DNA of 64,000 nucleotides from an uncultured Rheinheimera sp. (GCA_964525695.1 CAZGHW010000007.1:56384-120383), one strand, 5' to 3'. Positions 286-23,679 are shown, counted from the first letter of the stretch. Program-made: numbers and translations. Notes: generated from the sequence alone by a model not told the origin.

Positions 286-293
286 CCTGCGCA

Positions 294-327
294 GATCCGG
301 AGGCTGGCTGGTGCAGCCTCCCGGATC
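294..327. terminator. Hairpin between convergent GH fragment and GNAT genes
   Basis: GATCCGGAGGCTG-N7-CAGCCTCCCGGATC, a 13-bp stem with one bulge. No clear U-tract on either strand. Confidence 0.4.
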
Positions 328-337
328 CTACTGTGAG

Positions 338-823: not shown

Positions 824-953
824 GGCAAATCCTTTTGATACCGCAGTTTAAACTGCGGCTTGATGCTGATATCAATGAAATATTTTTATCAAGATAAAAC
901 AAGCGAGACTTGTTGTCAGCACAGCGGTCGCAGAAAAACAGACATTCAGCCGA

Positions 954-986
954 AACGACAAGGCCGGAAGTTCCAGCCTTGTCGTT
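954..986 (-). terminator. Intrinsic-type terminator after the LacI-family gene
   Basis: AACGACAAGGC-N11-GCCTTGTCGTT, an 11-bp stem beginning 3 nt after the stop at 990-992. On the minus strand it is followed by TTTCGG. Confidence 0.55.
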
Positions 987-989
987 GCT

Positions 990-2003: not shown

Positions 2004-2029
2004 CTGATGTACTTACTCAACGATGACAA

Positions 2030-3373
2030 TTAGCTTATCAGCTTTTCGCTGTCAGCTCTTGCCAAATCCCGGCTAATCACAGCTATTTTTTCATTGGTCA
2101 GAATGTACCAGCGCATCACCAACGCCACCAAAATTGAACCAAAGGCCGGATAAATACTGAAGGATAACAAAATGCCTGTTTTGGCAGTGGCCGTCTGTTC
2201 GACGTCGGCTTGATAACCATAACCTGCTAATAACCAGCCCGCCGCAGCGCCACCAATGGCTAAGCCTAACTTGATAAAAAAGATAATTGAGGAATACACC
2301 ATGCCTGTGGTGCGCACACCGGTTTTCCACTGGCCGTAATCGACGGTGTCGGCCATTTTCGCCCATAACAGGGGGGTGCCAGCATTAAAAAACAGGTTCC
2401 ATAAAATAAACAGGCTAAATGCCAACGTGCTCTGTTCAGCCGCAACAAAATAACTGCCGATACACAGCGCCGCCGCAATCAGTTGAATCGCTATATAAAG
2501 CCGGACCTTACAATATTTTTTCGAAAGTGGCTGCGCAATGATGCAGCCAGCAATACTGCCAAACATGCCAAGAGTGATAAACAAGGTAATACTGTCCGGC
2601 AGTTGCAGATAATATTTCACATAATAGATCGCCAACGTGTTGCGCAGCACAGAACCAGCCAGCAAAAACAAAGCGGCCACAGATAACACCCGCCACTGAT
2701 CATTTTGCCATAACGCCTGAAAATCCTGTTTCAGGCTGCCTTGTGACGCCGCGGGTGGTTGTAATCTTTCTTTGGTGCCAGCAAAACAAAGTAAAAACAT
2801 CACCACACCCAGCACACTCATGGCAGCAATGGTCAACTGATAGCCTTTGGCTTTGTCACCAGCACCAAAATAATCCACCAGCGGTAAGGTACAAGCCGAG
2901 ACCAGCACACCGCCGAGCATCGCAAACACAAAACGGTAAGACTGAATGGACACCCGCTCAGCCGGATCAGCGGTTAACACCCCGCCCAAAGCACAATAGG
3001 GAATATTAATGGCGGTATAGACCAGCATCAACAAGGTATAAGTCGCAAAGGCATACCACATTTTGCCTGTTTCAGAAAAATCCGGCGTCGTAAACGCCAG
3101 CACGCTGATCAGACCAAAAGGCAGCGCAAACCACAACAAATAAGGCCGGAATTTGCCATGCCGACTGACAGTCCGGTCGGCCCAGGCCCCCATTAAGGGA
3201 TCGGTAATGGCATCAATCACCCGCACCGCCAAAAACATGGTGCCAACAAAAGCTGGCGATAAGCCAAAAATATCGGTGTAAAAAAATGTCAAAAACAACA
3301 TCACAGTCTGAAACACAATATTACTGGCCGTATCCCCCAGCCCATAAGCAACTTTCTCTTTGACGCTGACCAT
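2030..3373 (-). CDS. MFS glycoside-pentoside-hexuronide (GPH):cation symporter
   Basis: 447 aa, about 12 predicted TM segments. The N-terminus EKVAYGLGDTASN is typical of MelB/GPH transporters. Confidence 0.85.
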   Translation of the reverse strand: MVSVKEKVAYGLGDTASNIVFQTVMLFLTFFYTDIFGLSPAFVGTMFLAVRVIDAITDPLMGAWADRTVSRHGKFRPYLLWFALPFGLISVLAFTTPDFSETGKMWYAFATYTLLMLVYTAINIPYCALGGVLTADPAERVSIQSYRFVFAMLGGVLVSACTLPLVDYFGAGDKAKGYQLTIAAMSVLGVVMFLLCFAGTKERLQPPAASQGSLKQDFQALWQNDQWRVLSVAALFLLAGSVLRNTLAIYYVKYYLQLPDSITLFITLGMFGSIAGCIIAQPLSKKYCKVRLYIAIQLIAAALCIGSYFVAAEQSTLAFSLFILWNLFFNAGTPLLWAKMADTVDYGQWKTGVRTTGMVYSSIIFFIKLGLAIGGAAAGWLLAGYGYQADVEQTATAKTGILLSFSIYPAFGSILVALVMRWYILTNEKIAVISRDLARADSEKLIS

Positions 3374-3523
3374 CCCTTTCCCCTGTTTTTGTTGGCTTTT
3401 ATTGTTATTGGTTTTTTATAGTGTCTCTAGCATGCATCTGGCAGTGTGCGGCTCGCCAGCAACAACACTGCCGTTGATTAAAGTCCTTAACTGGCGCACC
3501 AGCGGTGGTCGAGCCGTGATACG

Positions 3524-4864
3524 TCAAGCGGCGCCATGGCGGCTTTGCAATAAATCACGGTAGGCCAGACCACTTTGTTTAATCACCCGTTGTTGGCTGG
3601 CATAATCGACATAAACAATCCCAAAGCGTTTTAAATAGCCCTCAGCCCATTCAAAATTATCCATCAGGCTCCAGGCAAAATAACCCTCCACCCGCACGCC
3701 CTGCCGGATCGCCTGATCTAGCGCCAATAAGTGTTGCTGATAATATTGCAGCCGGTCCGGATCTGCCACCACAGCATCAACCAACTTATCATCAACCGCT
3801 GCGCCATTTTCTGTGATGTAAAGCGGCGGCAAACTATATTGCTGATGTAACGAGACCAACAAATCGGTCAGTGCCTGCGGATAAATTTCCCAACCAATAT
3901 CGGTTTTAGGTGCATCCACCATGTCTACCGGCGCAAAACCTTGTTCGGCACAAGCCTGATAGACAGCTCGGGTATAAAAATTCACCCCGAGAAAATCCAG
4001 TGGCGTACTGATAATGTCAAAATCGCCAGCAAGGATCTGCGGTTTGTCCTGTTCCGCCAACAGGGCAAAACTGGCAGGATAACAGCCATCCATCACAGGT
4101 TTAAGGTACCACTGATTAAAATAATCGTCCGCCAGCTGGGCGGCGGCAACATCGGCCGGATCATCCGTTTGCGGATAACAAGGGGTAAAGTTCAGCACCA
4201 GACCATTTTGACTGTGCGGACTATTTTGCTGCAACACCCGAAGTGCCAACCCATGCGCCAGTAACAGATGATGCGCCGCCTGCCGGCCCCAGGCTTTACT
4301 GCGATAGCCAGGCGCATGAATGCCTGCCTCATAGCCCAGATAAGAGCTGCAAAATGGCTCATTCAGCGTGGCATAGGAATAGACCCGATCGCCAAATGCC
4401 CGGCTGATTTTATCAGCATAATCGGCAAATAAATAAGCGGTCTGACGATTGAGCCAACCGCCCTGATCTTCCAGATGCTGCGGCAAATCCCAATGATATA
4501 AAGTGACAAAAGCTTTGATACCGCGCGCTTTTAATTCATCCAGCAACTGAATATAAAAATCTACCCCCTGCGGGTTTAGACTGCCGTCTTGCTGCATCAC
4601 TCTTGGCCAGGAAATGGAAAAACGATATGCATCCACCCCCAGTGATTGGATCAACGCCAGATCCTCCCGCCATAACCGTAAATGATCACAGGCGATCATG
4701 CCATTAGAGCCATCGCGGATATTGCCTGGCTTGGCGCAAAATGTATCCCAGATACAAGCTAACCTACTGTCAGCGCCACCTTCAATCTGAAAGGAGGCGG
4801 TGGCCACGCCAAACATAAAGTCGCTGGACATAAGGGTTGAATCCTGCGGTAACTCTATCTTCAT
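3524..4864 (-). CDS. GH1 beta-glucosidase
   Basis: 446 aa. GH1 catalytic motifs TLNEPF (acid/base Glu) and YITENGAA (nucleophile Glu). N-terminal FMFGVATASFQIEGG. Confidence 0.95.
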   Translation of the reverse strand: MKIELPQDSTLMSSDFMFGVATASFQIEGGADSRLACIWDTFCAKPGNIRDGSNGMIACDHLRLWREDLALIQSLGVDAYRFSISWPRVMQQDGSLNPQGVDFYIQLLDELKARGIKAFVTLYHWDLPQHLEDQGGWLNRQTAYLFADYADKISRAFGDRVYSYATLNEPFCSSYLGYEAGIHAPGYRSKAWGRQAAHHLLLAHGLALRVLQQNSPHSQNGLVLNFTPCYPQTDDPADVAAAQLADDYFNQWYLKPVMDGCYPASFALLAEQDKPQILAGDFDIISTPLDFLGVNFYTRAVYQACAEQGFAPVDMVDAPKTDIGWEIYPQALTDLLVSLHQQYSLPPLYITENGAAVDDKLVDAVVADPDRLQYYQQHLLALDQAIRQGVRVEGYFAWSLMDNFEWAEGYLKRFGIVYVDYASQQRVIKQSGLAYRDLLQSRHGAA

Positions 4865-4968
4865 AACTGTATTTCACTCTTGTTCACGGCTGTTAGTGGC
4901 TGGATGATCCGGCGATCTTGTTGGATCTGCTCAGATCTGGCCGGCTTTCATTACAGTAGCCACGCCAC

Positions 4969-4982
4969 TGTAAGCGCTTTCA
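4969..4982. promoter_or_regulatory. LacI-family operator upstream of the GH1-MFS-LacI operon
   Basis: TGTAAGCGCTTTCA fits TGNAANCGNTTNCA with one mismatch from perfect dyad symmetry. It lies about 105 bp upstream of the GH1 ATG. Confidence 0.6.
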
Positions 4983-5045
4983 ATTCACATTCAAAGCCTA
5001 GCTTGCTTTCTCATTTAGGTCAATCTGCCAGCAGGGTCCGCTGCT

Positions 5046-5804
5046 TCAATAATCTGATGATACGGCTTCGAAATTCAAAAACATATTGGCGGTCAATCGC
5101 CCGATGGCAGGATCGGCCGATAGATCGGTTGCGGTTTGCACCAAACTGGAATGCAATAAATTACCCGGATAAATCAATAAGCGGTTTTGCTGAAAAGGCA
5201 GTTGCTGGTACAGCTCAAATTGTTGGTCCGAAGCCACCTGATAACGTTGGGGGGGCGCGCCATGTTGATCAAAAAAGCGCTGTGCCGCCTGAAAATACTC
5301 CGTTTGTCGCTGTGGCATGATGCGCTCAAAACCGGTTGGCTTATGGCGGAAAAAACCAGTACCGCCATGAGAACCAGCCGATAAATAATGCAACACCGCA
5401 AAAAAATACGGTTGGGCGGAATCAAAATGTGGCAGGCACTGCATCGGCTGCAACTGGGCTTCCGGCATCGTTAATAAGGAAAAATAACCTTCTTTGGGCC
5501 TTAATTTCAGCGTCGGCGGAATTTGATACACCCGATACATCAGTGGATACAACGCCTCTAACAGCGCCAACATATAAGCGCGCGGTAATGGTGCGCGTAA
5601 TCCCGGATACATCGAACTGCCATCCGTTGCATAACTGGCTGCACAAGCTTGTTGTCGCAATATCGACAGATCCGACAGCACATGGTCAATCAGCACGAGT
5701 GGCGTTTGTTGCTGCCCCAGGCTGAGCAACTTAACCTGCGCTGTACTTGCCAGTTGATATGGATCCACCGTGATGTCCTGCTGCCAGTCTTGGCTCATCA
5801 TCAT
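5046..5804 (-). CDS. Uncharacterised protein with an HxD...H pattern (possibly DUF6445 / Fe(II)-2OG-oxygenase-like)
   Basis: ORF 5046-5831. The likely start is one of three ATGs at 5804-5798, after AAGGCGG. Contains LPHFDS (HxD) and a distal ...YPGNLLHSSLV. No signal peptide. The family name is recalled, not searched. Confidence 0.5.
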   Translation of the reverse strand: MMMSQDWQQDITVDPYQLASTAQVKLLSLGQQQTPLVLIDHVLSDLSILRQQACAASYATDGSSMYPGLRAPLPRAYMLALLEALYPLMYRVYQIPPTLKLRPKEGYFSLLTMPEAQLQPMQCLPHFDSAQPYFFAVLHYLSAGSHGGTGFFRHKPTGFERIMPQRQTEYFQAAQRFFDQHGAPPQRYQVASDQQFELYQQLPFQQNRLLIYPGNLLHSSLVQTATDLSADPAIGRLTANMFLNFEAVSSDY

Positions 5805-5809
5805 CCGCC

Positions 5810-7363
5810 TTAGCCTCGCGTCGCCGGACAATAATATTGAATAAAATCCTGGGTCGGCGGATATTGCTGCACAGTTTTTTTCACTCCAGTGGCAATAGTC
5901 GCCAGAAAATCAGCCAGTTCGCTTTCGGACATGGTATCCACAATCGGATGGTATTGCGCTGGGAACAACCCCTGCCCCAGCATCACCTGGATCCAGGAGC
6001 TTTCGCCAAACAATTCCTGAGCAAATTTATACACCTTGCCCGACTGGCGGAATAACGCCATCCGGTGCGCCAAAGATTCCGGCACCGCCATATCACGGCA
6101 ATAACGCCAGAACTGACTATCCTGCCTTGCCGTCGCTTTGTAATGCAAGATGATAAAGTCGCGGATATTAAGCATTTCAGTGCGGGTTTGTTGGTTAAAT
6201 TCCGCCACGTCGGCCGGACAGATCCCCTGTGATGGAAACATCTGTAATAACCGGATAATACTGCGCTGGATCAGATGAATACTGGTCGATTCCAGTGGTT
6301 CCAGAAAACCACTGGATAAGCCAATGGCGATACAGTTTTTCTGCCAATGCTGCAACCGGCTGCCGGTGCGGAATTTAATCTTCCTGGGTTCGGTCAGCCG
6401 CTCGCCCTGAATTTGACTCAGCAATAACGCTTGCGCTGCTTCATCGCTTAAAAATTTACTGCAATACACCAAGCCATTACCAACCCGGCTTTGTAGCGGA
6501 ATTTGCCATTGCCAGCCTGCCTGATGCGCAATGGCTCTGGTGTAATTCAGCGCTGGGGCTATGCTTTTGGTTTGCACCGCAATGGCACTGTCACAGGGCA
6601 AATAATGACTCCAGTCTTCATAACCGACGTTTAACGTCTGCTCAATTAATAAAGCACGAAAGCCAGTACAGTCGATAAACAAATCGCCTGTGATAAGCTC
6701 ACCAGAATCCAATTGCAGCGCGCTGATATCGCCATTGTCGGCTTGTGCTACGCTGGTTATTTTCCCTTCCCGCCGCTGCACGCCATGCTGCTGCGCCAGC
6801 TCGCGCAGATAACGGCCATATAAAGTCGCATCCAAATGATAAGCGTGATTTAAATCTTGTTGCGCTAACACGGCAAAGCGATGTTGGCGCGCCGCTAAAT
6901 GCTCGACACAATAATCGCCAATGTCCAGGGCCAGCCCGAGTTGGCGGCCTTTGCGCCAGAAATGTTGAAAACCGCAGGCCCAACAATCTTTGCCCAAAAA
7001 GCCAAATGAATGCAGGTAGTTTTGCCCTTGCTGGTACCAATTCTCAAACGAAATGCCCAGTTTAAAAGTGGCGTTGGTGGCCGCCATCACCTCCTGTTCA
7101 TTCAACCCGAGCAGACGATGGAAAATATGCAAGGTCGGAATGGTGGCTTCGCCCACGCCGACAGTGCCGATCTCATCGGATTCAACCAGCACAATCTGCA
7201 AATTTTTGCCAAGTAATTTACCAAGCGCGGCCGCTGTCATCCAACCGGCAGTCCCGCCACCAGCGATCACCACTTTACGGACAGCAGGAGCGCTGGCAGC
7301 GCCCTGCGGGTGATGCCTGGACTGAGCATCAACAGGCTGGGTTGTGGCGGAATGTTCAGACAT
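5810..7363 (-). CDS. Flavin-dependent halogenase family protein ('tryptophan halogenase'-like), copy 1
   Basis: 517 aa. FAD motif VVIAGGGTAGW, GVGEATIP, halogenase signature GWQWQIPL (WxWxIP), ATFKLGISF Lys motif and GFLEPLESTSI. Confidence 0.85.
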   Translation of the reverse strand: MSEHSATTQPVDAQSRHHPQGAASAPAVRKVVIAGGGTAGWMTAAALGKLLGKNLQIVLVESDEIGTVGVGEATIPTLHIFHRLLGLNEQEVMAATNATFKLGISFENWYQQGQNYLHSFGFLGKDCWACGFQHFWRKGRQLGLALDIGDYCVEHLAARQHRFAVLAQQDLNHAYHLDATLYGRYLRELAQQHGVQRREGKITSVAQADNGDISALQLDSGELITGDLFIDCTGFRALLIEQTLNVGYEDWSHYLPCDSAIAVQTKSIAPALNYTRAIAHQAGWQWQIPLQSRVGNGLVYCSKFLSDEAAQALLLSQIQGERLTEPRKIKFRTGSRLQHWQKNCIAIGLSSGFLEPLESTSIHLIQRSIIRLLQMFPSQGICPADVAEFNQQTRTEMLNIRDFIILHYKATARQDSQFWRYCRDMAVPESLAHRMALFRQSGKVYKFAQELFGESSWIQVMLGQGLFPAQYHPIVDTMSESELADFLATIATGVKKTVQQYPPTQDFIQYYCPATRG

Positions 7364-7431
7364 CGGATCACCTTTTTGTTATGCCAGATTAGTGACAGCA
7401 ACAACCCGCAAGCACAGTGGCGGCAAGTTGC

Positions 7432-8511
7432 TTAACGTTTTAATTTATTTTGCAATAATGCCCTGAGCTGACGGGCCTGCAACTCCGGCAGCGGTTGTTG
7501 CAACATGCCGCTGGCTGCAGGCGGCAAGTCAGCTACAGCCGCCTGTTCATGCTGAAAAATGTAATAGTCAAACCAAGCCTGCCAGGCCTGGCGTTGCGCT
7601 TTGGGTAAGCTGCGCAAACTGAGCATGGCATGCAATAACGCATTGTTTGGTCGCCCTAAATAAGCTGGGGTATCGCGCCACCAATGGGTGATCAGGCCAT
7701 TTAACCGCTGATGGCCCTGCACATGGTGCCACCACATCGATGGGATAAATAACAGATCGCCAGGCTCTAGCTCGGCGATCAAAGCCGCTTGCTGTGCTTG
7801 GGCAAACATTGGAAACCGCTGTAAATCAACAGCACTAAAATCCACCAGACTGATCTCCTGGCCACCCGGGGCAAATTCGAGCGGCCCTGGATATAAATGC
7901 TGGATCTGTTCAGGGGCAAATAAGGTAAAAGTACGCTTGCCAAGCACGTTACAAGCCAGGTTATGTGGAAAATCGACATGGGCGGCCACCCGCACCGCAT
8001 GCCCCAGCCATAAACTGGTCAGGGCGGACCAGGCCGGCCCTCGTACGCTATTAGCCGTCTCCAAACCGGGAAAAAAATGCGTTATGTCGGTCGAAGCCAT
8101 ATACAACAGTGCTGCATCTGTTGATGGCTGCATAGCCAATTGCTGTAACAACTGGCTAAAGCTTGCTTTGCCAGCCTGATAATTAAAGCCACTGTAATCA
8201 GCATTATAAAACACCCGGCCCTGGGTTTCGGCCGCCAGCACCGCCACATTCACCGGCTGGCCAGCGTCAAATTGTTGCAGATAAGCCAAAGCCGCGGCGT
8301 CAGACACTAACCCAGCCTGCACCAGTGGCCAGTGCCGGCAGTAGCCTTTGAGCAACAACGGCGTGTCCCGCTCTTGCAACAAGGCCAGCAACTCAGTGTC
8401 ATCAGTTGGTGCGCCATCTGCCACGCCGGTTTGCGCGGGTGATGCCAGCGTCAGTTGCTCAACCCGGCGCGCATGTTGCTGCCACTTTGCCAGTGGCTGC
8501 TGGCCCGACAT
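7432..8511 (-). CDS. Cupin_8 / JmjC-type cupin (putative Fe(II)/2OG hydroxylase)
   Basis: 359 aa. AAHVDFPHN (HxD) and distal ...IPSMWWHHV in a double-stranded beta-helix context. Its start overlaps the SapC stop (TGATG). Confidence 0.7.
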   Translation of the reverse strand: MSGQQPLAKWQQHARRVEQLTLASPAQTGVADGAPTDDTELLALLQERDTPLLLKGYCRHWPLVQAGLVSDAAALAYLQQFDAGQPVNVAVLAAETQGRVFYNADYSGFNYQAGKASFSQLLQQLAMQPSTDAALLYMASTDITHFFPGLETANSVRGPAWSALTSLWLGHAVRVAAHVDFPHNLACNVLGKRTFTLFAPEQIQHLYPGPLEFAPGGQEISLVDFSAVDLQRFPMFAQAQQAALIAELEPGDLLFIPSMWWHHVQGHQRLNGLITHWWRDTPAYLGRPNNALLHAMLSLRSLPKAQRQAWQAWFDYYIFQHEQAAVADLPPAASGMLQQPLPELQARQLRALLQNKLKR

Positions 8512-9248
8512 CAGTCGCGCCCGGCTTTTTGCAACTGATTTTTCAATTGCAATAACTGACGAATGCGCGATTGCGAGGCAATTTGCAGATAAATAGCCTG
8601 CAAATAACCGCGTTGATGCAACAGCGCTAACGCCGATGCATCCAGTTGCTGTAACACAGTTTCGGCGATGGTATAAAAACCAACCATCTGATGTTTACTG
8701 CCATCGTCTAACTGCACATCCAGCGTAAAAGACTCCAGCAAATTGAGTTCCAGCAATAATTCGACAAATAACTGACCGTCCTGTAAACCCAGGTGCAAGG
8801 TTTCCAGTAAGCCAGCCATTTGCTCCAGATAAGGACTATTACCGCCATAAGCTAAAAACAAGGCTTCGCCCTCAGTTTCACTTAAGCGCGGACTCTGAGT
8901 GTCAAGATGCAGCACCCGCTGCAGCTGCTCTACGCCGTGCTCACGGCTCAGTTGCTGACCAATTAAAAAGGGCTGCCGGAGCACCGACAGTGGGATGTAA
9001 CTGTGCTGCCAATTATTGTGTTGCAAAAACAAATTCTCTTGCTGCTGGAAGCCAAACAAGGCCACTGGCAGCAGTCGGCCAGTAGCCGCTTCTTTGACAA
9101 AAAAAATCGGGTATTGCGCCTGGACACTGCGAAACTCCAGTGGAAAAGTCGGGCTAAACCATAGATTGTCGCCATACTGAGCACCGCGTTCAGTAATGAC
9201 CCGTAAATGCTGGTGGTCGACACTATTGAGTAACACATGTTGCGTCAT
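8511..9248 (-). CDS. SapC family protein
   Basis: 245 aa. N-terminal ...LNSVDHQHLRV... and ...PIFF.. regions are typical of SapC. It occupies the position seen in TBDR/halogenase clusters. Confidence 0.7.
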   Translation of the reverse strand: MTQHVLLNSVDHQHLRVITERGAQYGDNLWFSPTFPLEFRSVQAQYPIFFVKEAATGRLLPVALFGFQQQENLFLQHNNWQHSYIPLSVLRQPFLIGQQLSREHGVEQLQRVLHLDTQSPRLSETEGEALFLAYGGNSPYLEQMAGLLETLHLGLQDGQLFVELLLELNLLESFTLDVQLDDGSKHQMVGFYTIAETVLQQLDASALALLHQRGYLQAIYLQIASQSRIRQLLQLKNQLQKAGRD

Positions 9249-9311
9249 AAAATCCCCTGTCTGACTGCGGTATCTGGTCAGATTACAGCTGCACTCGCTG
9301 TCAGCTAACCG

Positions 9312-10901
9312 CTAAATTTTACTAAACCCATAACGCGCGACTTTTTCCAGTAACACCCGGTTGCTGTCCAGTGCCGCCACCAGTTGCTGGCATTTCTGCT
9401 GATTTTGCGCGAATAATTGCTGCGCCTGGCGTTGGGCCGACGGTTTGCCAGCCCGATACTCAGTTTGAAAGCCCATTCCCAACAACACATACAAATAGCT
9501 GGCAGCTGGGAACAAAGGATCACTGTAGCCAAAATCGGCGGCACTGGGTGGCTGATAATGCCAGTAAGCCAGTTGCTCAGTCAGATCAGCCGGTATCGTG
9601 CTGGCGAGGCGGTGATCGCGCCAATAGGGATCGGCAGTTTTTTCACTCAACACATAATGCAGTTTCAAAAAACTGATGATTTGCTGCCAGTGCTGACGAA
9701 AACGTTGATTCATTCTGGCGGCGGTCGCCGCCATTTGACTATGCCGTGCTGGCAACTGACTGGCAATAAATTGAGCGCTCCATTCAATCAGCGCCAGGGC
9801 TGACGCCTCTAACGGCTCAATAAAACCTGCGGCCATGCCGACGGCGACACAATTGCCTTGCCAGCAGCGTTGGTAATAGCCAGGCGTAAACCGAAGCGGC
9901 CGCAACTGGGCCTGACTGGCAGCGACAGCACCAAATTCAGCCTGCAGATACTGCTCGAGCTGTTGGGCGGCCTGTTCATCCGTTTGGTGGGCAGAGGAAT
10001 AAACATGCCCGACGCCACGCCGACTGGCCAGAGCAATATCCCAGATCCAACCAGCGGGCTTTGCACTGGACAAGGTACAGGACGCTATCGGACTGTCTGG
10101 TGCCGGATACGGCATTTGTACTGCCAGCGCCCTGTCATTAAACAACTGCTGGCTGGAACTGACAAAAGGCACTGCTAACTGCTGACCTAACAACAACGAG
10201 CGACTACCACTACAATCGATAAATAAATCCGCGCGAATATCGCCATGCTCGGCGGTAGTGAGGCGGTCGATCTCGCCATCCACCCGTTGATGAACCTCTA
10301 CAACATGATCCCTAAGGTAAGTCACGCCTAACTTGGTGCTGATATGTTGTTGCAATAACTCGCTGAATTTGTGGGCGTTGAGATGATAGCCATAGTTATT
10401 GATAAAACTGTATTCGGCGGTGCTGATTTGTTTCGGTGCCAGATGTAACTGACATAAACGAAATTGCTGGCATACCGCATCGGCATAAGCCACTTCTGCG
10501 CGAAACGGCTGCCAGTAACGGCATAACTGCAATTGCTGCCAGCCCTCTGGCAAACTAAAAGGATGTAAATAGCTGTCACTGTGACCATGGGCTGACAGCG
10601 TTTCTGCATCACTACGCCAGCCATGAAAGTAAGAGCCTTGTTTAAAGCTGGCTTCACAACAACGTAAAAAATCGGTTTCACTGAGGCCTATTTTTTCCAG
10701 TGTCAGCCGTAACGACGGCCAACTACCTTCGCCGACGCCAATAATGGCAACCTCAGGCGACTCCAGCAACGTAATGTGCAGCGGAGGCTCCGGCAAGAGC
10801 TTGCCTTGATCGGCATTATGTTCAGCCGCTAATAATCCGGCGGTGATCCAGCCTGCGGCACCGCCGCCGACAATCACAATAGTCCTTAACATTCTATCCA
10901 T
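9312..10901 (-). CDS. Flavin-dependent halogenase family protein, copy 2
   Basis: FAD motif IVIVGGGAAGW directly after M at 10901/10892 (the ORF-track start 10979 adds 26 non-homologous aa). Also GVGEGSWPSL, ASFKQGSYF, GWIWDIAL (WxWxI-A variant) and GFIEPLEASAL. Confidence 0.85.
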   Translation of the reverse strand: MDRMLRTIVIVGGGAAGWITAGLLAAEHNADQGKLLPEPPLHITLLESPEVAIIGVGEGSWPSLRLTLEKIGLSETDFLRCCEASFKQGSYFHGWRSDAETLSAHGHSDSYLHPFSLPEGWQQLQLCRYWQPFRAEVAYADAVCQQFRLCQLHLAPKQISTAEYSFINNYGYHLNAHKFSELLQQHISTKLGVTYLRDHVVEVHQRVDGEIDRLTTAEHGDIRADLFIDCSGSRSLLLGQQLAVPFVSSSQQLFNDRALAVQMPYPAPDSPIASCTLSSAKPAGWIWDIALASRRGVGHVYSSAHQTDEQAAQQLEQYLQAEFGAVAASQAQLRPLRFTPGYYQRCWQGNCVAVGMAAGFIEPLEASALALIEWSAQFIASQLPARHSQMAATAARMNQRFRQHWQQIISFLKLHYVLSEKTADPYWRDHRLASTIPADLTEQLAYWHYQPPSAADFGYSDPLFPAASYLYVLLGMGFQTEYRAGKPSAQRQAQQLFAQNQQKCQQLVAALDSNRVLLEKVARYGFSKI

Positions 10902-11024
10902 TGTTCTTACCCACAACTGGCAACGACCTGGCATCACAACCGCATTGGCTGGATCGGTCACCATGGCAATCCTGTTCAAACTTTAATCTAGCGCATCTGG
11001 CACTGACTTGTCTGCCTGTGGCAG

Positions 11025-11060
11025 AAAAAACACAGGCACTGCCGGGGAACAGCGCCTGTG
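11025..11060 (-). terminator. Intrinsic terminator/attenuator just after the TonB-dependent receptor gene
   Basis: Minus strand reads CACAGGC-N16-GCCTGTG followed by TTTTTT, 11 nt after the stop at 11071-11073. Confidence 0.6.
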
Positions 11061-11070
11061 TGCTTCGTGG

Positions 11071-14043
11071 TTAGAAGCTGTAACGCGCACCCACACTATA
11101 GCGGGAGCCGGTTTCAACCAGGCTTAACACCTGCTCTTTGGCCCGACCATGGACCCGGCTGTACTCATCCGTCAGATTCAAGGCTTCAACATAAAGCGTT
11201 AAGCCCTGTACCATCGGCAATTCATAGCTGACGGACAAATCAACCTGCGAATAAGCTTCGGTATATTTCGGATTGGCACCGGTATCTTGCCCGCGGGAGT
11301 TAAGGAACTCATCCCGCCAGTTATAAGCAATCCGGGCCTGAAAACCATAATTTTCATAAAACAGGATGGCATTGGCAGTATCACTGAGGCCAACCAGCGC
11401 TGGCTGATCCCGCAGCAGGAAATTGTCATACTCAGTGTCACTGTCGACCAGGGTGTAATTGCCAATCACGCCAAAACCAGTGTCACCAAAAGCGTGCTGC
11501 ACCGTCAGTTCCCAGCCGGAAATGGTTTTGCTGCCAGGTTCATTGGTCGGCGTATCAATTTTGAATACCATCAGCTTATCTTGCGCGGCATTACCAATAA
11601 TGGCCTTGCCAGCAACATCAACAAAGGGATCGTTCGGATAGTTTTCAAAGATCCATTTACGAATTGCGCCTGCATCAGCCCCAACTGCTGCCAGCGCCTG
11701 GTTATAACGCTGACCATCGGCAGGGTTATAAATACCGGCAATGGTAGTATCCACTTTTTGCGCACTGATAAAATTGGTCGTTTCTTTGCGGAAATACCCA
11801 ACGGACGTATAACTCGAAGGGGCGTAATACCATTCGGCCGAAAAATCATAATTTTTTGATTCCAATGGCAATAATGACGGCACCCCGATAGTGCCACCAC
11901 CACCGGCTCTATTGGCAATAGTGCCAAGCACCCGTCCACCCTGAATCGAAACATAATCAGGCCGGCCAATGGTCTCACTGTAAGCGGCCCGCAGCATCAC
12001 ATCATCCACCACTTCAATATTAAAATTGAAGTTTGGTAGCACATAATCATAATCGCCTTGCTGAGTTTGATACTCGCGCTTACCAGTCGCAATTAATGGG
12101 ATCTCAGTATCCGCGGTCCATTTAGCCCCGTTATAAGAGGCAACCGCAGAAGTCGAAGTGACATCGGTCGATTCATAACGAATCCCTAAATGCACATCAT
12201 AAGGTCTGCCATTCCAGTCAGCTGCATAGTTGTATTGCAAATACGCTGCTTGGGATTCTTCTAATGTATAACGGTCAATATCGCGGGCATAATCGGTACT
12301 TGGGCAAAAATCGGTGCCACAATCGCCATTGCCTTTATAGCCGGCTGGGGTATAGAGTTGCTCAGCCCTATCGCGGATGCCGTAGAAATCCCAGAAAAAT
12401 ATTTTATTCAGTAGCTCATAGTTTTTGCCACTGGCGGCAGAGAAATCACCTTTTGACGCCGAAAATTTGTCATGAATGGTTTCCACCGGAAATAAACCAG
12501 CATCGAAGTCACCGGCTTTACCGACGCCACCCCAATCATTACGCTGCACATTGACCGATTTGGAATGATTATCCACATCTGTCATCGCCAGACCAAAATC
12601 GATGCTGCTTTGTTCGGTCAACTCATAACTGCCTTTGAGTTGATATTGGTCGATCACCGAGCGATTTTCTGAATTGGTAAAGTTGCTGCCGGTCACCCGC
12701 ATATCGGCCGGCGTCATAGTGTTGCCGCCCCCCACCGCTAAGGCTGGCAAATCACCACTAAAATCAGTGGCGGCATACATCCGGACAAAAGCCGCCATAC
12801 TCAGACCATTATTCGAACCCAAGGCATGATTCGGTGTATTTTCAGCATCAGAATGATGCGCATCAAAGGTCAGTTTCAATTTATCTGTCGCTTCCCACTC
12901 CAGATTAAAACCGGCTGAACCACTTTCATTACGCACACCATAATCACCGGCGCCCATCGATAGATCCTGCGGCGTGGCGTAGTTCTCAGCATAAATCAGC
13001 GGTGAGGCTACCGGACCATCAGTCCAGACGTTTTGGGAAGGCGCAAAGGTAAACCAAGCCGAGATATCGTTGTATTGAGTGTCGATATCATTGCGCATGT
13101 AGGTGTAGTCTAAAGTCGCTTTGACACTGTCAACCGGACTATATTGCAACACCAATTGCCCATTGGTCCTGACCCGCTGCTGCTCTTCAAACTTATAAAT
13201 GGTGGTTTGCGGCACTGAATAGACATCGGTCGGACCTGGTCTGTTGACCTGACCTGTTTGTGGCACGCCGCCCCACTCGCCGGTACCGGCATCATAATTA
13301 TCATCGGCCTTACCGGAAAAACTGCGCCAACCAGTGCCGACATTGGCTTGTTGATTGCCACTTTCGCGCTCCTGATAGCTGCCCGATAACATCACGCCAA
13401 ACTGATTATCAGCAAAGGTGTTGGAATATAAGGCTGAAAACTCAGGCGTCATATCGCCTTTATCACTGGATTGATCGTCCACCATGGAAAAATTGGCGGT
13501 GGCTTTCATGCCTGGCGAATTTAACGGCCGCAGGGTTTCAACATTAATGGTTGAACCTATACCACCAGTCGGGTTAGCGGCATAAGCCGTTTTATGCACC
13601 TGCACCCCACTGATGGAATCTGAAGCAATATTGGCAAAATCAAAGGAACGTGAGCCTGTGGTGACCGGCATTTGGCGGCCATTTAACGTTACCAGGTTAA
13701 AATCCGGACCAAAGCCGCGAACACTGACGCGGCTGCCTTCACCATTGACCCGATCAATGGACACGCCGGATATCCGTTGTAAAGATTCGGCCAGATTGGT
13801 ATCGGGGAATTTACCGATATCTTCTGCTGAAATGGCATCCACAATGCCGTCAGACGAACGTTTGGTATCCATCGCTTTGATCAGACTGCCGCGAATACCG
13901 CTGACGGCGATGACTTCGATCGGTTGTTGTTCAGCAGTAGTTTGCTGAGCGAATGCCGGTAAGCCAAGGCCGATACCACCAAAACCCAGCACCATAGATA
14001 AACTACTGGCGATCCTGCTTTTGGTAAATTTCTTTGCTTTCAT
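11071..14043 (-). CDS. TonB-dependent outer-membrane receptor (glycan-type, about 990 aa)
   Basis: Signal peptide ...GLGLPAFAQQ, plug domain (DAISAEDIGKFPDTNLAESLQRISGVSI), long beta-barrel and a terminal aromatic residue (...RYSF). Confidence 0.95.
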   Translation of the reverse strand: MKAKKFTKSRIASSLSMVLGFGGIGLGLPAFAQQTTAEQQPIEVIAVSGIRGSLIKAMDTKRSSDGIVDAISAEDIGKFPDTNLAESLQRISGVSIDRVNGEGSRVSVRGFGPDFNLVTLNGRQMPVTTGSRSFDFANIASDSISGVQVHKTAYAANPTGGIGSTINVETLRPLNSPGMKATANFSMVDDQSSDKGDMTPEFSALYSNTFADNQFGVMLSGSYQERESGNQQANVGTGWRSFSGKADDNYDAGTGEWGGVPQTGQVNRPGPTDVYSVPQTTIYKFEEQQRVRTNGQLVLQYSPVDSVKATLDYTYMRNDIDTQYNDISAWFTFAPSQNVWTDGPVASPLIYAENYATPQDLSMGAGDYGVRNESGSAGFNLEWEATDKLKLTFDAHHSDAENTPNHALGSNNGLSMAAFVRMYAATDFSGDLPALAVGGGNTMTPADMRVTGSNFTNSENRSVIDQYQLKGSYELTEQSSIDFGLAMTDVDNHSKSVNVQRNDWGGVGKAGDFDAGLFPVETIHDKFSASKGDFSAASGKNYELLNKIFFWDFYGIRDRAEQLYTPAGYKGNGDCGTDFCPSTDYARDIDRYTLEESQAAYLQYNYAADWNGRPYDVHLGIRYESTDVTSTSAVASYNGAKWTADTEIPLIATGKREYQTQQGDYDYVLPNFNFNIEVVDDVMLRAAYSETIGRPDYVSIQGGRVLGTIANRAGGGGTIGVPSLLPLESKNYDFSAEWYYAPSSYTSVGYFRKETTNFISAQKVDTTIAGIYNPADGQRYNQALAAVGADAGAIRKWIFENYPNDPFVDVAGKAIIGNAAQDKLMVFKIDTPTNEPGSKTISGWELTVQHAFGDTGFGVIGNYTLVDSDTEYDNFLLRDQPALVGLSDTANAILFYENYGFQARIAYNWRDEFLNSRGQDTGANPKYTEAYSQVDLSVSYELPMVQGLTLYVEALNLTDEYSRVHGRAKEQVLSLVETGSRYSVGARYSF

Positions 14044-14140
14044 GATGTTATCCCTGTCGACTGTTTTTTTGCCGCTGCTATTTCACATAGCTTTTTCTCA
14101 GTTGGCGCTCAGTCGGGGGCTAATACCATGGAACCACCAT

Positions 14141-14156
14141 TTGTAAGCGCTTACAA
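14141..14156. promoter_or_regulatory. LacI-family operator upstream of the TonB-dependent receptor
   Basis: TTGTAAGCGCTTACAA is a perfect 16-bp palindrome whose core TGTAAGCGCTTACA fits TGNAANCGNTTNCA. It lies about 98 bp upstream of the TBDR ATG. Confidence 0.65.
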
Positions 14157-14456
14157 AACGTAGGTGATATTTCTGCAATCGTCAAATCGAAAAATCTCAA
14201 GTCTGTATCGAAATATCAGACCAACAGCGGTCAAAAATCAAGCAAACTTAAACAATACAGTTGCAGCAATCACAAGCCTTAGCTGCTGGCCGAAAACCGC
14301 TAAAAAACGGCCTATTTACAGCTAAAAAAATATTTTATTGGCCCAGCAACGACCCATTACAACAAAAAAACTTTGACCGAGACTGCTCCAACCAGCTTTT
14401 GCCTTCGTATACTGGCGGGACTGCAGACGGCAGTCTTTGACAAGGGACAGATTTAC

Positions 14457-14828
14457 ATGCTTAGTTACGCAACTATCGGGGTCAATGATTTGACCAAAGC
14501 CCGCGCTTTTTATACTGAATTATTGGCCGATCTCGGTGCCAAACCGCTGCTGGAGATGGATAGAATCATCTTTTTTGGCAAAAACATGACCAAACCTATG
14601 TTGGCTATTTGTATCCCTTTTAACAAAGAGCCAGCCCAGCCAGGCAATGGCACTATGGTAGCCATCAGTCCAGGCAATAAAGCCGCTGTCGATGAGCTGT
14701 ACCACAAAGCAATCAGTCTGGGAGCCAGCTGTGACGGCGCGCCAGGCCAACGTATTCCGGATATGTTTTATGGTGCTTATATCCGCGATTTAGATGGCAA
14801 CAAAATTGCCTTTACTCATTTTGGCTAA
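14457..14828 (+). CDS. VOC (glyoxalase/bleomycin-resistance/dioxygenase) family protein
   Basis: Starts MLSYATIGVNDLTKARAFYTELL (typical VOC N-terminus) at ATG 14457. The ORF-track start 14373 is a non-ATG extension. Confidence 0.75.
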   Translation: MLSYATIGVNDLTKARAFYTELLADLGAKPLLEMDRIIFFGKNMTKPMLAICIPFNKEPAQPGNGTMVAISPGNKAAVDELYHKAISLGASCDGAPGQRIPDMFYGAYIRDLDGNKIAFTHFG

Positions 14829-14831
14829 TAG

Positions 14832-15533
14832 ATGCAGTTACATAGTGATTTACGCCAACGTATTGTGCTGACCCCGGAGCAACATCAGTGGGTCGATTCA
14901 CCAATGGCTGGCGTAAGCCGGATGATGCTGGAGCGGGCCGGTGCTGAAACCGCCCGCGCCACCAGTCTGGTCCGTTATGCCCCAGGTGCCGGTTATCACG
15001 CCCATACCCATGGCGGCGGGGAAGAAATTCTGGTGCTGTCTGGTGTTTTCTCTGACGAGCATGGCGACTATCCGGCTGGCACATATTTGCGTAACCCTCC
15101 AGGCAGCAGCCATACCCCTTTTTCTGTACCTGGTTGTGAGTTGTTGGTGAAACTTTGGCAGTTCCAGGCCAACGATCAACAAACACTGGTACTGGACACC
15201 AACAGCAGTAGTTTTGTCGCCGGACTGGTGCCGGGTTTAACAGTCTTACCTTTGCATCAGCATGATGGTGTGCAGACGGCACTGGTGCGGTGGGCACCGC
15301 ACACGCGGTTTAATCGCCATGTGCATGTTGGCGGCGAAGAAATATTGGTGTTGCAGGGGTTGTTCTGCGACGAGTATGGCGAATATCCGGCCCAGAGCTG
15401 GATCCGCAGCCCTGCCTACAGTCAGCATCAGCCCTATACCCGTGATGCAGGAGCGCTGATTTATGTCAAAACTGGTTTTGTCGGCGCTGGTTTACTCGGT
15501 GATGACTGGTTACAAGCAACAAGCGCCAGTTAA
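14832..15533 (+). CDS. ChrR-like double cupin protein (no anti-sigma zinc-binding domain)
   Basis: 233 aa. Two repeats of H.H.GGEEILVL.G.F.DE.G.YP (HAHTHGGGEEILVLSG and RHVHVGGEEILVLQG). Confidence 0.7.
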   Translation: MQLHSDLRQRIVLTPEQHQWVDSPMAGVSRMMLERAGAETARATSLVRYAPGAGYHAHTHGGGEEILVLSGVFSDEHGDYPAGTYLRNPPGSSHTPFSVPGCELLVKLWQFQANDQQTLVLDTNSSSFVAGLVPGLTVLPLHQHDGVQTALVRWAPHTRFNRHVHVGGEEILVLQGLFCDEYGEYPAQSWIRSPAYSQHQPYTRDAGALIYVKTGFVGAGLLGDDWLQATSAS

Positions 15534-15602
15534 AAGCACTGGCCGGTCGTGATCGCAGCGGCTACACTGCCAGCCAATTTATTTTCAGTCGGCGGCCAGT
15601 CC

Positions 15603-17087
15603 ATGCAAACTCAACACAGTTACCAACAATTACCGGCAGAATTTTTTCAGCTGTGTGCCCCCACACCTGTGGCTGCACCACAGTGGTTGGCCTTTAATAC
15701 TGAACTGGCGGCTGAACTGAATTTTCCAGCTGAACTGGCGGGCACTGAGGCCGGACTACAACTGCTGGCAGGCAATCAATTAGCAGCCTGGGCCAGCCCA
15801 CTGGCGCAAGCTTATAGCGGTCATCAATTTGGCCATTTGTCACCCAGGTTGGGCGATGGTAGAGCGTTATTGCTGGCAGAGATTATTGATCGGCGAGGCC
15901 ATATTGTCGATTTGCAGCTCAAAGGCGCAGGTCCGACCCCCTTTTCGCGCCGTGGCGATGGCCGCTCCGCCTTGGGTCCGGTGATCCGTGAATACTTAGT
16001 TAGTGAAGCCATGCATGCGCTTGGCGTACCGACCAGCCGGGCGCTGGCGGCGGTGATCAGTGGTGAGCCTGTGGTGCGGGAGCGCTTACAGCCTGGCGGT
16101 ATTTTAAGCCGGGTTGCCAGCAGTCATCTGCGCATCGGTACTTTTCAATATGTGGCGATGCTCAATGACAACGCCAAATTGAGCCAGTTACTGGAGTATG
16201 CACTGACACGGCATTATCCGGCGGCACTGCAGGCTGACAATAAAGCACTAGCGTTATTGCAGCAGGTCAGCCAGGCGCAAGCAGCGCTGGTGGCGCACTG
16301 GATGAGTTTGGGTTTTATCCATGGGGTGATGAATACCGACAATATGTCCATTAGCGGCGAAACCATTGATTATGGTCCCTGTGCTTTTCTGGACCAATAT
16401 CAACCGGCCACAGTGTTCAGCTCTATTGATCAGCAAGGTCGTTATGCCTATCGCAACCAACCGGCCATTGCGCAGTGGAATCTGGCCCGACTGGCGGAAG
16501 CATTATTGCCGCTACTCGCTGCTGATGAAAAAACCGCCATTGCCGTTGCCACCGCCGAGTTAAATCAGTTTCCGCAGTATTATCAGCAGCAATTTCATCA
16601 GCGGATGGCCGCCAAACTAGGTTTCTCTGCCGCAATGCAAAGCAGTCACAGCGATAGCCTGGCGCAACTGATCCAGCAATGGCTGGATTTATTACAGCAG
16701 CAACAGGCTGATTTTACCGCTTGTCATCGCCAATTAGCGGCTGCACTTGCCGATCCCGCCCATCCGGCAGGCCCGACCCAGCTCTATAGTGCAACTGCCG
16801 ACTGGTTGGCTTTTTATCAGCAATGGCAGCACTTACGTGCGCAGGATAGTCAGCAGCAAGCCAGCAGTTGTCAGCAACAAATGCTGGCCGTCAATCCGGC
16901 GTTTATTCCGCGTAATCATCAAATTGAACAAATTATCGACCAGGTGACAACGCAGCAGGAGCTCGGATTATTTCAGCAGTTTGCCCGTGATTTAACGACG
17001 CCTTTTGCCCTTGGCGCTGATGCAAGCCGCTGGGCGGCAGTGCCAGAGCCTACAACTACGCCTTATCGCACTTTTTGTGGTACTTAA
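15603..17087 (+). CDS. selO: Protein adenylyltransferase SelO (YdiU)
   Basis: Motifs YSGHQFGHLSPRLGDGRALLL, LQLKGAGPTPFSRRGDGR and GFIHGVMNTDNMSI. ATG at 15603. Confidence 0.9.
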   Translation: MQTQHSYQQLPAEFFQLCAPTPVAAPQWLAFNTELAAELNFPAELAGTEAGLQLLAGNQLAAWASPLAQAYSGHQFGHLSPRLGDGRALLLAEIIDRRGHIVDLQLKGAGPTPFSRRGDGRSALGPVIREYLVSEAMHALGVPTSRALAAVISGEPVVRERLQPGGILSRVASSHLRIGTFQYVAMLNDNAKLSQLLEYALTRHYPAALQADNKALALLQQVSQAQAALVAHWMSLGFIHGVMNTDNMSISGETIDYGPCAFLDQYQPATVFSSIDQQGRYAYRNQPAIAQWNLARLAEALLPLLAADEKTAIAVATAELNQFPQYYQQQFHQRMAAKLGFSAAMQSSHSDSLAQLIQQWLDLLQQQQADFTACHRQLAAALADPAHPAGPTQLYSATADWLAFYQQWQHLRAQDSQQQASSCQQQMLAVNPAFIPRNHQIEQIIDQVTTQQELGLFQQFARDLTTPFALGADASRWAAVPEPTTTPYRTFCGT

Positions 17088-23641: not shown

Positions 23642-23679
23642 CTTAAAACTCCCCATAACAGCGCCACAACGGCCGAAGA

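Follow-up and report, generated by a model that had tools for sequence, protein, structure and literature searches.

Within a 64,000-nt (64-kb) stretch of DNA from an uncultured Rheinheimera sp. (GCA_964525695.1, CAZGHW010000007.1:56384-120383), hereafter the window, we analysed a gene for a TonB-dependent outer-membrane transporter (TBDR, the receptor) and the cassette of five genes that follows it on the same strand, coding for two flavin-dependent halogenase homologues (Hal-2 and Hal-1), a SapC-family protein, a JmjC-type cupin and a DUF6445 protein. Our analyses indicate that positions 990-14155 very probably constitute a beta-glucoside/cellodextrin utilisation locus under a BglR-type LacI repressor, with two near-identical operators (O1 and O2) and two units. 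The O1 unit would consist of the transporter gene (omp-Bgl), and the O2 unit of the genes for a family 1 glycoside hydrolase (GH1), a GPH symporter and the repressor; beta-glucosides would cross the outer membrane by the transporter, enter the cytoplasm by the symporter and be cleaved there by GH1. Behind a terminator lies the cassette, predicted to supply five soluble cytoplasmic proteins (two halogenases, SapC, a FIH-like JmjC protein and a DUF6445 dioxygenase), and both its functional tie to the receptor gene and the intactness and cytoplasmic location of its enzymes are strongly supported. The explanation of locus and cassette taken as a whole, which extends to what the cassette enzymes act on, falls a little short of probable.

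The open reading frame (ORF) listing of the window gave ten consecutive minus-strand genes between positions 338 and 14043, to which families were assigned with Pfam and NCBIfam. The series opens with the receptor (11071-14043), a 990-aa protein that carries a signal peptide and is the orthologue of Omp-Bgl from Shewanella; it is built of a Plug and a beta-barrel domain and matches TIGR01782 with 624 bits (cutoff 310) over residues 45-990. It is followed, all on the minus strand, by Hal-2, a flavin-dependent halogenase homologue of the 2PYX type (9312-10901, 529 aa, PF04820 at 6e-109), by a soluble SapC-family protein (8511-9248, 245 aa, PF07277 at 5e-68), by a JmjC (Cupin_8) Fe(II)/2-oxoglutarate oxygenase resembling FIH and JMJD5 (7432-8511, 359 aa, PF13621 at 1e-57), by Hal-1, a flavin-dependent halogenase homologue of the Xcc4156/BrvH type (5810-7363, 517 aa, PF04820 at 7e-186), and by the DUF6445 protein, a divergent classical Fe(II)/2-oxoglutarate dioxygenase (5046-5804, 252 aa, PF20043 at 6e-71). 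Downstream of the cassette, also on the minus strand, are a GH1 beta-glucosidase of the BglA-I type (3524-4864, TIGR03356 with 598 bits against a cutoff of 478), a GPH-family glycoside:cation symporter of the BglT type (2030-3373, TIGR00792 with 424 bits and PF13347 at 5e-98) and a LacI-family repressor of the BglR type (990-2003, LacI helix-turn-helix and Peripla_BP domains), together with a GNAT gene. The longest possible ORFs of Hal-2 and DUF6445 extend to 10979 and 5831, respectively; homologues favour the ATG starts at 10901 and 5804.

An earlier reading of this DNA (the original prediction) had listed six same-strand ORFs, from the receptor to a protein with an HxD..H motif, here DUF6445, and the ORF listing and family searches bear out both their coordinates and their assignments. 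It had also described short gaps between them. This stands for the gaps of 5-68 nt, for the TGATG overlap between the SapC stop and the cupin start at 8511, and for the last gene, whose start codon lies 5 nt past the Hal-1 stop, but not for the 169-nt gap between TBDR and Hal-2, which contains the terminator. The absence of signal peptides that it had noted in the five downstream proteins was likewise recovered: a signal-peptide-like N-terminus (...LPAFA/QQ) is found in the TBDR only, the five proteins contain neither a hydrophobic N-terminal nor a transmembrane segment, and the N-terminus of GH1 lacks a signal peptide as well. No second copy of the cassette is present in the 64-kb window.

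The control of the receptor gene can be read from two operators of the BglR type (LacI family). O1, the perfect palindrome TGTAAGCGCTTACA (14142-14155), lies 86 nt upstream of the TBDR start codon, and O2, TGTAAGCGCTTTCA (4969-4982), which carries 1 mismatch, lies 104 nt upstream of the GH1 start codon. These are the sole matches with at most 2 mismatches within the 64 kb, where 0.29 would be expected, and they agree with the LacI-type operators that had been proposed before the TBDR and before the GH1 operon. A candidate sigma-70 promoter was recognised by eye on the minus strand at 14157-14185, with a -35 element TTGACG (14185-14180), a 17-nt spacer and a -10 element TACGTT (14162-14157); the consensus promoter scan did not list it, the -10 element being weak. 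O1 begins 2 nt downstream of this candidate -10 element and would cover the transcription start of the receptor gene. The LacI protein of the BglR type is presumably the binder of both O1 and O2. No Fur box was found for the receptor, the best match being 11/19, the same as the shuffle mean, and no Rfam element was found in positions 1-16000.

The conservation of this arrangement was assessed by scanning one genome per species with the SapC alignment, which yielded 181 relatives; the best 80 loci were kept, of which 66 had enough flank. They came from Rheinheimera, Alkalimonas, Shewanella, Ferrimonas, Paraglaciecola, Colwellia, Thalassotalea, Microbulbifer and other genera. Receptor, SapC and Hal-1 were each present in 66/66 loci, Cupin_8 in 65, DUF6445 in 60 and Hal-2 in 55; the gene order was the same and receptor and cassette were adjacent in all 66, and the full one-strand order receptor, Hal-2, SapC, cupin, Hal-1, DUF6445 occurred in 51 loci. 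Receptor identity ranged from 49 to 80% across 76 related loci, the repressor was 52-88% identical to the regulator in 48 related loci, and the SapC protein was 74% identical to that of Rheinheimera riviphila. Word-indexed protein searches returned 3105 and 2184 relatives of SapC and 925 of DUF6445. One locus, from Shewanella phaeophyticola (L016), appears decayed, with truncated receptor, GPH and LacI matches and no cupin.

The linkage with GH1, GPH and LacI survives rearrangement: Rheinheimera has these genes downstream, Shewanella and Ferrimonas have them upstream, and in Colwellia GH1 and GPH are upstream of the receptor and LacI, where seen, is about 5 kb downstream of the cassette. An operator with at most 2 mismatches precedes the receptor in 56 of the 66 evaluable loci and GH1 in every evaluable locus, and it is kept upstream of both across Rheinheimera, Alkalimonas, Shewanella, Ferrimonas, Colwellia, Thalassotalea and Paraglaciecola. 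The receptor operator is absent exactly where GH1, GPH and LacI are not found within 10 kb, that is, in Microbulbifer, which has kept receptor-SapC-cupin-Hal-1, and in three further loci (L035, L051, L070). Retention or loss of the operator together with these genes amounts to a phylogenetic footprint, and control of the receptor by a LacI-type operator common to the GH1, GPH and LacI genes is therefore well supported.

The same four genes connect the window with a published regulon. In Shewanella, a Bgl regulon was predicted in which bglA-bglT-bglR and omp-Bgl are each preceded by BglR sites (Rodionov 2010, PMC2996990); the bglA-bglT pair lets E. coli use cellobiose, and growth of Shewanella on cellobiose has been published alongside this complementation (PMC2996990). 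The GH1, GPH, LacI and receptor genes of the window are orthologous to those of Shewanella loci (60-77% identity) and display the same operator upstream of GH1 and of the receptor. They differ in arrangement, since the window has the order receptor-cassette-GH1-GPH-LacI on one strand whereas in Shewanella GH1-GPH-LacI lies upstream of the receptor. The halogenase, SapC and cupin genes are not mentioned in that study (PMC2996990). A comparable combination of TIGR01782 receptor, inner-membrane transporter, glycoside hydrolase and LacI-type regulator defines the carbohydrate-utilisation (CUT) loci of Xanthomonas and Caulobacter (Blanvillain 2007, PMC1790865), a concept that is not known to include a halogenase/SapC/cupin cassette.

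How the cassette itself is expressed depends on the 169-nt spacer that separates the TBDR from Hal-2. An intrinsic terminator-like hairpin (11024-11061, minus strand) starts 9 nt past the TBDR stop codon and consists of a perfect 14-bp stem (11061-11030), a 4-nt loop and a run of six T (T6), with a folding free energy of -24.8 kcal/mol and a z of -3.6. A hairpin with a T-run immediately 3' of the receptor stop was found in 54/76 related loci, and its stems are unrelated between genera (GAGGTG...CACCTC in Shewanella, AAAGCCGCTGG...CCAGCGGCTTT in Microbulbifer); as the stem sequences differ completely, it is the hairpin structure itself, and not its sequence, that has been maintained. Because of this strong terminator behind the receptor gene, a single six-gene transcript cannot be taken for granted. 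The single sugar-regulated six-gene operon envisaged in the original prediction is thus upheld for a receptor under a LacI-type operator and doubtful as one transcription unit.

Other genomes offer indications of how the cassette may nevertheless come under the same control. Six Shewanella loci (L009, L014, L023, L029, L030, L032) carry, beyond the terminator and some 110-150 nt upstream of Hal-2, a second site that resembles the operator with 2 mismatches, TGAAAGTGCTTACA, and one Ferrimonas locus (L054) has a different 2-mismatch site, TGTAAGCGGTTTCA, downstream of the terminator; the chance expectation of such a site was estimated at about 1e-3 per spacer. These sites suggest that in Shewanella and Ferrimonas the cassette has a promoter of its own, controlled by the same repressor. 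In Sphingomonadales (L081, L092-L094), the Hal-2, SapC, cupin, Hal and GH16 genes overlap by 4 nt and the string continues into LacI, MFS and GH3, which is strong evidence for co-transcription of the cassette with glycan genes there. A metatranscriptome study of Colwellia has further reported that the receptor and the halogenase of such a module are up-regulated jointly. In the window, the cassette would be expressed through read-through of the terminator, and hence at a lower level than the receptor, or from a weak promoter, while the Shewanella cassette may instead use its own operator-controlled promoter. No small ORF that might encode a precursor peptide is kept between genera in the receptor-to-Hal-2 spacers.

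The tie between receptor and halogenase extends well beyond beta-glucoside loci. We examined the wider context in a small sample of annotated plasmids and chromids, entered from SapC or Hal-1, in which every proteobacterial match opened (at least 33% identity for SapC, at least 36% for Hal-1) adjoins a TonB-dependent receptor in a glycan locus. These loci are of the laminarin type with GH16/GH3 in Sphingobium, contain an agarase and a beta-galactosidase in Catenovulum, a GH3/MFS set in Catenovulum and Sphingomonas, alpha- and beta-galactosidases with an SLC5 transporter in Pseudoalteromonas, an alpha-L-fucosidase in Croceicoccus, GH43/GH9 with four tandem halogenases in Niveispirillum and GH2/GH3 in Asticcacaulis, and are of the GH68 sucrose type in Hirschia. 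The minimal pair consists of receptor and halogenase, and SapC is frequent. Halogenase and receptor genes are in some loci divergently or convergently oriented, as many as 6 halogenase places were counted on one replicon, and the sphingomonad loci have GH16/GH3 and no GH1. The halogenase is much better conserved across glycan types than its receptor (46% against 24% in the Croceicoccus locus L088, 59% against 42% in L085). The occurrence of receptor and halogenase pairs in loci for so many glycans argues against both a siderophore pathway and a chemistry purely specific to beta-glucans. It also agrees with the recurrence beside glycan-utilisation genes which had been stated in the original prediction and which we observed in Alteromonadales, Sphingomonadales, Caulobacterales and relatives; the conserved gene set that it had anticipated is borne out by the identical order in all 66 loci with enough flank.

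Two arrangements within this sample deserve a separate description. On a plasmid of Niveispirillum cyanobacteriorum (L087, NZ_CP025614, 4934-11058), the four tandem halogenase-family genes are divergent from one receptor and lie beside GH43, GH43 and GH9. On plasmid pCME4A9I of Croceicoccus marinus (L088, position 9401), the halogenase stop overlaps the start of the alpha-L-fucosidase gene, as it overlaps the GH16 start in the sphingomonads (L081, L092-L094); these stop/start overlaps indicate that the halogenase is translationally coupled to glycan-degrading enzymes in Croceicoccus and the sphingomonads.

The two halogenase homologues are only 32% identical to each other. Xcc4156 of Xanthomonas campestris (PDB 6Y1W; E 2e-194, about 64% identity) and BrvH (PDB 6FRL; E 1.5e-138) both match Hal-1 along its entire length, while Hal-2 aligns end to end with PDB 2PYX (E 2e-202, about 65% identity). 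The GxGxxG motif, Lys101, WxWxIP (284-289) and Glu358 of Hal-1 are invariant in 76 orthologues, and the corresponding GxGxxG, Lys87, WxWxI and Glu365 of Hal-2 in 64 orthologues; in Hal-2 the motif reads WxWxIA, the Pro of WxWxIP being replaced by Ala, and in Hal-1 the second halide-site position is Ser, as in BrvH. Bit scores to true tryptophan halogenases of the PrnA/RebH/PyrH type were about 260-290 for Hal-1 and 160-245 for Hal-2, less than half those to Xcc4156 (650) or 2PYX (677). The structural entries related to Hal-2, namely 2PYX (an 'unnamed halogenase' of the Joint Center for Structural Genomics), 9LTB and 9LU2, have no function or activity attached.

More is known of the relatives of Hal-1. 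Bromination of indole derivatives in vitro, though not of free tryptophan, has been reported for Xcc4156, for two further Xanthomonas enzymes and for BrvH, whose native substrates are stated to be unknown; Xcc4156 and BrvH have an open substrate site with a solvent-exposed catalytic lysine (PMC7336383). They fall in a group with the lanthipeptide halogenase MibH and not with the true tryptophan halogenases (PMC8269204), and the closest characterised relatives lack the tryptophan-binding loops and reject tryptophan. Hal-1 keeps all the halogenase motifs of Xcc4156 and BrvH, the enzymes for which the activity was measured. In published work the enzymes figure as biocatalysts, and their receptor-linked gene context goes unmentioned in the passages of PMC7336383 and PMC8269204 that were searched. 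The large clade annotated as 'tryptophan halogenase' is probably misnamed. The original prediction had held that neither a substrate nor a halogenating activity was known for such gene sets, which remains true of the native substrate, none being found in the literature, but not of activity, given the bromination of indoles by Xcc4156 and BrvH.

Both oxygenases retain their active sites. The closest solved relatives of the cupin are FIH, JMJD5, TYW5 and JMJD7, and its iron site (HxD...H; His178, Asp180 and His262) is invariant in 77 orthologues. DUF6445, for which no sequence match exists in the PDB, yielded an AlphaFold2 (AF2) model with a pLDDT of 94.5; its residues H126-x-D128, H218 and R236-x-T238 are invariant, and its fold neighbours in the PDB are 2-oxoglutarate oxygenases, including the prolyl hydroxylases P3H1 and Tpa1. 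From these residues and those of Hal-1 and Hal-2 we infer that all four cassette enzymes are catalytically competent. The closest viral fold matches of DUF6445 in BFVD are cyanophage proteins (TM 0.62-0.67). A tblastn search of phage genomes with DUF6445 gave one match (MT835646.1, 1201-1875; 36% identity over 90% of the protein), located on an unannotated 23-kb 'Bacteriophage sp.' contig from human faeces, and a PHROGs match was labelled "minor coat protein", a label that we consider uninformative.

SapC, the fifth protein, has no sequence match in the PDB. Its AF2 model (m94a4b7a84ad6) is confident, with a pLDDT of 93.2, and a Foldseek search of the PDB gave nothing significant (best E 0.31); the top non-significant matches were the haem-binding cytoplasmic proteins HutX and ChuX (E 0.3-0.9, probability about 0.05). 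That SapC might be a hidden cupin or 2-oxoglutarate oxygenase was considered and rejected, hhalign giving a probability of 0.7% for SapC against DUF6445. Literature searches for "SapC family", "DUF6445" or "Pass1-related" returned nothing. In Campylobacter fetus, the SapC gene reportedly adjoins the type I secretion genes of a surface protein, in a context of the sapCDEF type. A secretion-linked context, distinct from that of the cassette, was observed on a plasmid of Sulfitobacter sp. OXR-159 (L084, 5767-10033), where a distant SapC (27% identity) lies between a gene for a 1047-aa DUF4214 protein and a DUF6447 gene, with HlyD, TolC and glycosyltransferase genes nearby and neither receptor nor halogenase. 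It resembles the C. fetus context in sharing PF07277 and in the proximity of HlyD, TolC and a 1047-aa protein of secreted type to SapC; unlike the cassette, it has no receptor, halogenase or cupin, and its SapC is only 27% identical to that of the window.

The reading that we prefer, tentatively, is that the cassette enzymes perhaps act in sequence on one electron-rich aromatic group of the indole or tryptophan type, which is likelier to be a residue of a peptide or protein than a free metabolite or a glycan. The halogenases would halogenate this group with FADH2, O2 and halide, the two oxygenases would then hydroxylate it with Fe(II) and 2-oxoglutarate, and SapC may be a partner, either non-catalytic or of a novel fold, that presents the client. 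Such a target is favoured because the nearest solved relatives of the cupin (FIH, JMJD5 and JMJD7) are protein hydroxylases and the prolyl hydroxylases P3H1 and Tpa1 are among the proteins that share the fold of DUF6445, and because Xcc4156 and BrvH have an open active site, reject free tryptophan and group with MibH. A peptide or protein target is also favoured by the location of a SapC gene next to type I secretion genes and a gene for a giant secreted protein, by the lack in the cassette of nonribosomal peptide synthetase (NRPS), polyketide synthase (PKS), ATP-grasp or exporter genes and of a conserved small ORF, and by a halogenase that is highly conserved whatever the glycan type, and much more so than the receptor.

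Several observations weigh against a peptide or protein client. To our knowledge, no halogenated or hydroxylated protein, of the outer membrane or otherwise, has been described from these bacteria. Receptors of the TIGR01782 subfamily are known that function without any cassette. The sole demonstrated activity of the halogenase clade of Hal-1 is on free indoles, no gene encoding a substrate was found, and many oxygenases of small molecules likewise appear among the fold neighbours of DUF6445. In the sample of plasmids and chromids, many loci hold receptor and halogenase alone, without SapC or cupin, and cupin and DUF6445 occur only in loci of the beta-glucan/beta-glucoside type, a restriction that keeps a glucoside-linked substrate among the candidates. 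Lastly, the stretch between terminator and Hal-2 in the window contains no operator (the best match has 7 mismatches) and no convincing promoter, so that co-regulation of its cassette rests on read-through and on the comparison with other genomes.

A bolder version of the protein-client reading, which we regard as improbable, would name the client as the precursor of the TonB-dependent transporter or another envelope-bound protein, halogenated and hydroxylated before export, with SapC as a cytoplasmic adaptor of new fold. If true, enzymatic halogenation would be seen for the first time in an outer-membrane protein of bacteria, and would tune glycan capture.

Possible, though rather unlikely, is that the cassette turns a common free cytoplasmic indolic or phenolic metabolite, such as indole itself, into a halogenated and hydroxylated product, a signal or a niche-protecting antimicrobial whose production would be wired to expression of the glycan receptor. 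The bromination of free indole derivatives in vitro by Xcc4156, about 64% identical to Hal-1, and by BrvH (PMC7336383) fits such a role, as do the up to four tandem halogenases by one Niveispirillum receptor, which resemble multi-step halogenation, and the co-occurrence of halogenases with DUF6445-like dioxygenases in cyanophage clusters without a receptor (PMC2938197); conservation of the halogenase across glycan loci also fits a common substrate. Yet the cassette lacks an exporter, a flavin reductase and any enzyme that would build a scaffold, cupins of the FIH type are known to act on proteins and tRNA, the open active site of the halogenases hints at a larger substrate, and a free metabolite would leave unexplained why each receptor has a paralogous halogenase copy, at up to 6 places per replicon.

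It is unlikely that the enzymes tailor or detoxify an aromatic compound entering with beta-glucosides, for example an aglycone freed by the cytoplasmic GH1 from an aryl-beta-glucoside. GH1 is indeed cytoplasmic and of the cellobiase/aryl-glucosidase type, the order (Hal-2)-SapC-Cupin_8-Hal-1 was found only in beta-glucoside/beta-glucan loci, in both Gamma- and Alphaproteobacteria, DUF6445 also occurs beside a GH3/MFS/receptor set, and the linkage with GH1 and GPH persists through rearrangement, with these genes downstream in Rheinheimera and upstream in Shewanella. Against this, loci for galactosides, agar, fucosides and sucrose (GH68), and loci with GH43/GH9 or GH2/GH3, also contain receptor and halogenase, with or without SapC; in Microbulbifer, receptor-SapC-cupin-Hal-1 is kept with neither GH1/GPH/LacI nor an operator within 10 kb; the sphingomonads have GH16/GH3 and not GH1, and halogenation is an unusual route of detoxification. 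The tailoring of beta-glucan co-imports put forward in the original prediction is therefore weakened by the loci for galactosides, agar, fucosides, GH43/GH9 substrates and sucrose, and retains in its favour the confinement of cupin and DUF6445, within the sample, to beta-glucan/beta-glucoside loci.

We consider it distinctly unlikely that no halogenation takes place in vivo, the proteins serving in flavin-dependent oxidation, in sensing or as a receptor assembly factor, or that the cassette is transcribed on its own and, though adjacent to the receptor gene, is functionally unrelated to it. A strong terminator behind the receptor gene, the lack of an operator in the 169-nt gap of the window and halogenase genes divergent from or convergent with the receptor in some loci are what such readings would predict, and the in vitro halogenase activities of the clade concern non-native substrates (PMC7336383). 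They are countered by the adjacency of receptor and cassette in 66/66 loci and across two proteobacterial classes, by the invariance of the halogenase-specific Lys, Glu and WxWxIP residues (WxWxIA in Hal-2), by the second operator behind the terminator in Shewanella and by the joint up-regulation of receptor and halogenase in Colwellia.

Finally, the siderophore-like halogenated compound that Iyer et al. 2010 predicted (PMC2938197) is scarcely credible as the product here, even though it is the published prediction for this neighbourhood and halogenases and oxygenases are typical tailoring enzymes, since the receptor falls in TIGR01782 and is an orthologue of a predicted sugar transporter, its LacI-type operator is common to GH1 and no Fur box accompanies it, the neighbours in every locus sampled are glycoside hydrolases, sugar transporters and sugar regulators, and neither an NRPS or NRPS-independent siderophore (NIS) synthetase nor an exporter is present.

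As described by Iyer, Abhiman, de Souza and Aravind, the neighbourhood contains SapC and a receptor of the TonB class together with a JmjC protein and one to three tryptophan halogenases, sometimes with a second classical 2-oxoglutarate dioxygenase related to gp52 of cyanophage Syn9, and was taken to have a receptor of siderophore type (PMC2938197). The window matches it in its receptor, two halogenases with intact Rossmann motif and lysine, SapC and FIH-clade JmjC protein; DUF6445 would be the second dioxygenase, its cyanophage fold matches fitting the label "Syn9-gp52-like". It departs from that description in that the receptor of the window is a LacI-controlled sugar type located among beta-glucoside genes, with no Fur box. 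Absent are the features of a siderophore cluster, with no iron (Fur) box, no synthetase genes and a LacI operator instead, and that of a cluster for a ribosomally synthesised and post-translationally modified peptide (RiPP), as no conserved precursor-peptide gene lies by the tailoring enzymes. Neither the module of the window nor the 80 related loci contain NRPS or NIS synthetase genes, no PKS, ATP-grasp or exporter genes accompany the cassette in the related loci examined, and no flavin reductase or scaffold-building enzyme belongs to it.

In all features that can be read from sequence, the locus thus corresponds both to the neighbourhood of Iyer et al. and to the Shewanella-type Bgl regulon. 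The module is already described but uncharacterised, and is not a new system; the claim of an undescribed system in the original prediction has to be withdrawn in view of Iyer 2010 (PMC2938197) for the neighbourhood and Rodionov 2010 (PMC2996990) for the orthologous Bgl regulon. Apart from Iyer 2010, we found no later paper treating halogenase, SapC and receptor together, and neither halogenase nor SapC is mentioned in the preprint 10.1101/072470 on transposon sequencing with random barcodes (RB-TnSeq). Our analysis adds a terminator of conserved position, the second Shewanella operator, a quantified census, the translational coupling with GH16 in sphingomonads, a halogenase more conserved than its receptor and a confident model of SapC without a solved relative.

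Receptor-linked cassettes of halogenases, SapC and oxygenases are common in Alteromonadales, Sphingomonadales, Caulobacterales and xanthomonads, recyclers of algal and plant glycans, and models of glycan utilisation ignore these genes. For the halogenases, structures and in vitro bromination data are available. The locus type lends itself to experiment, with a defined repressor and operator, cellobiose or another beta-glucoside as the likely inducer and culturable relatives in Shewanella and Rheinheimera, and its cassette, placed behind a terminator, could be removed without touching the receptor. Solving the cassette would link oxidative and halogenating chemistry to TonB-dependent sugar uptake, and would give a function to SapC, to DUF6445 and to the large 'tryptophan halogenase' clade.

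Elsewhere in the window, a second TonB-dependent receptor of 784 aa (21440-23794, minus strand), with Plug and barrel domains, shows no sequence relationship to the first, and neither a halogenase nor a SapC gene adjoins it. Divergent from the receptor promoter, on the plus strand at 14373-17087, are three genes in tandem, which code for a protein of glyoxalase fold, a ChrR-like Cupin_7 protein and the protein adenylyltransferase SelO and by their appearance are related to stress or redox functions.

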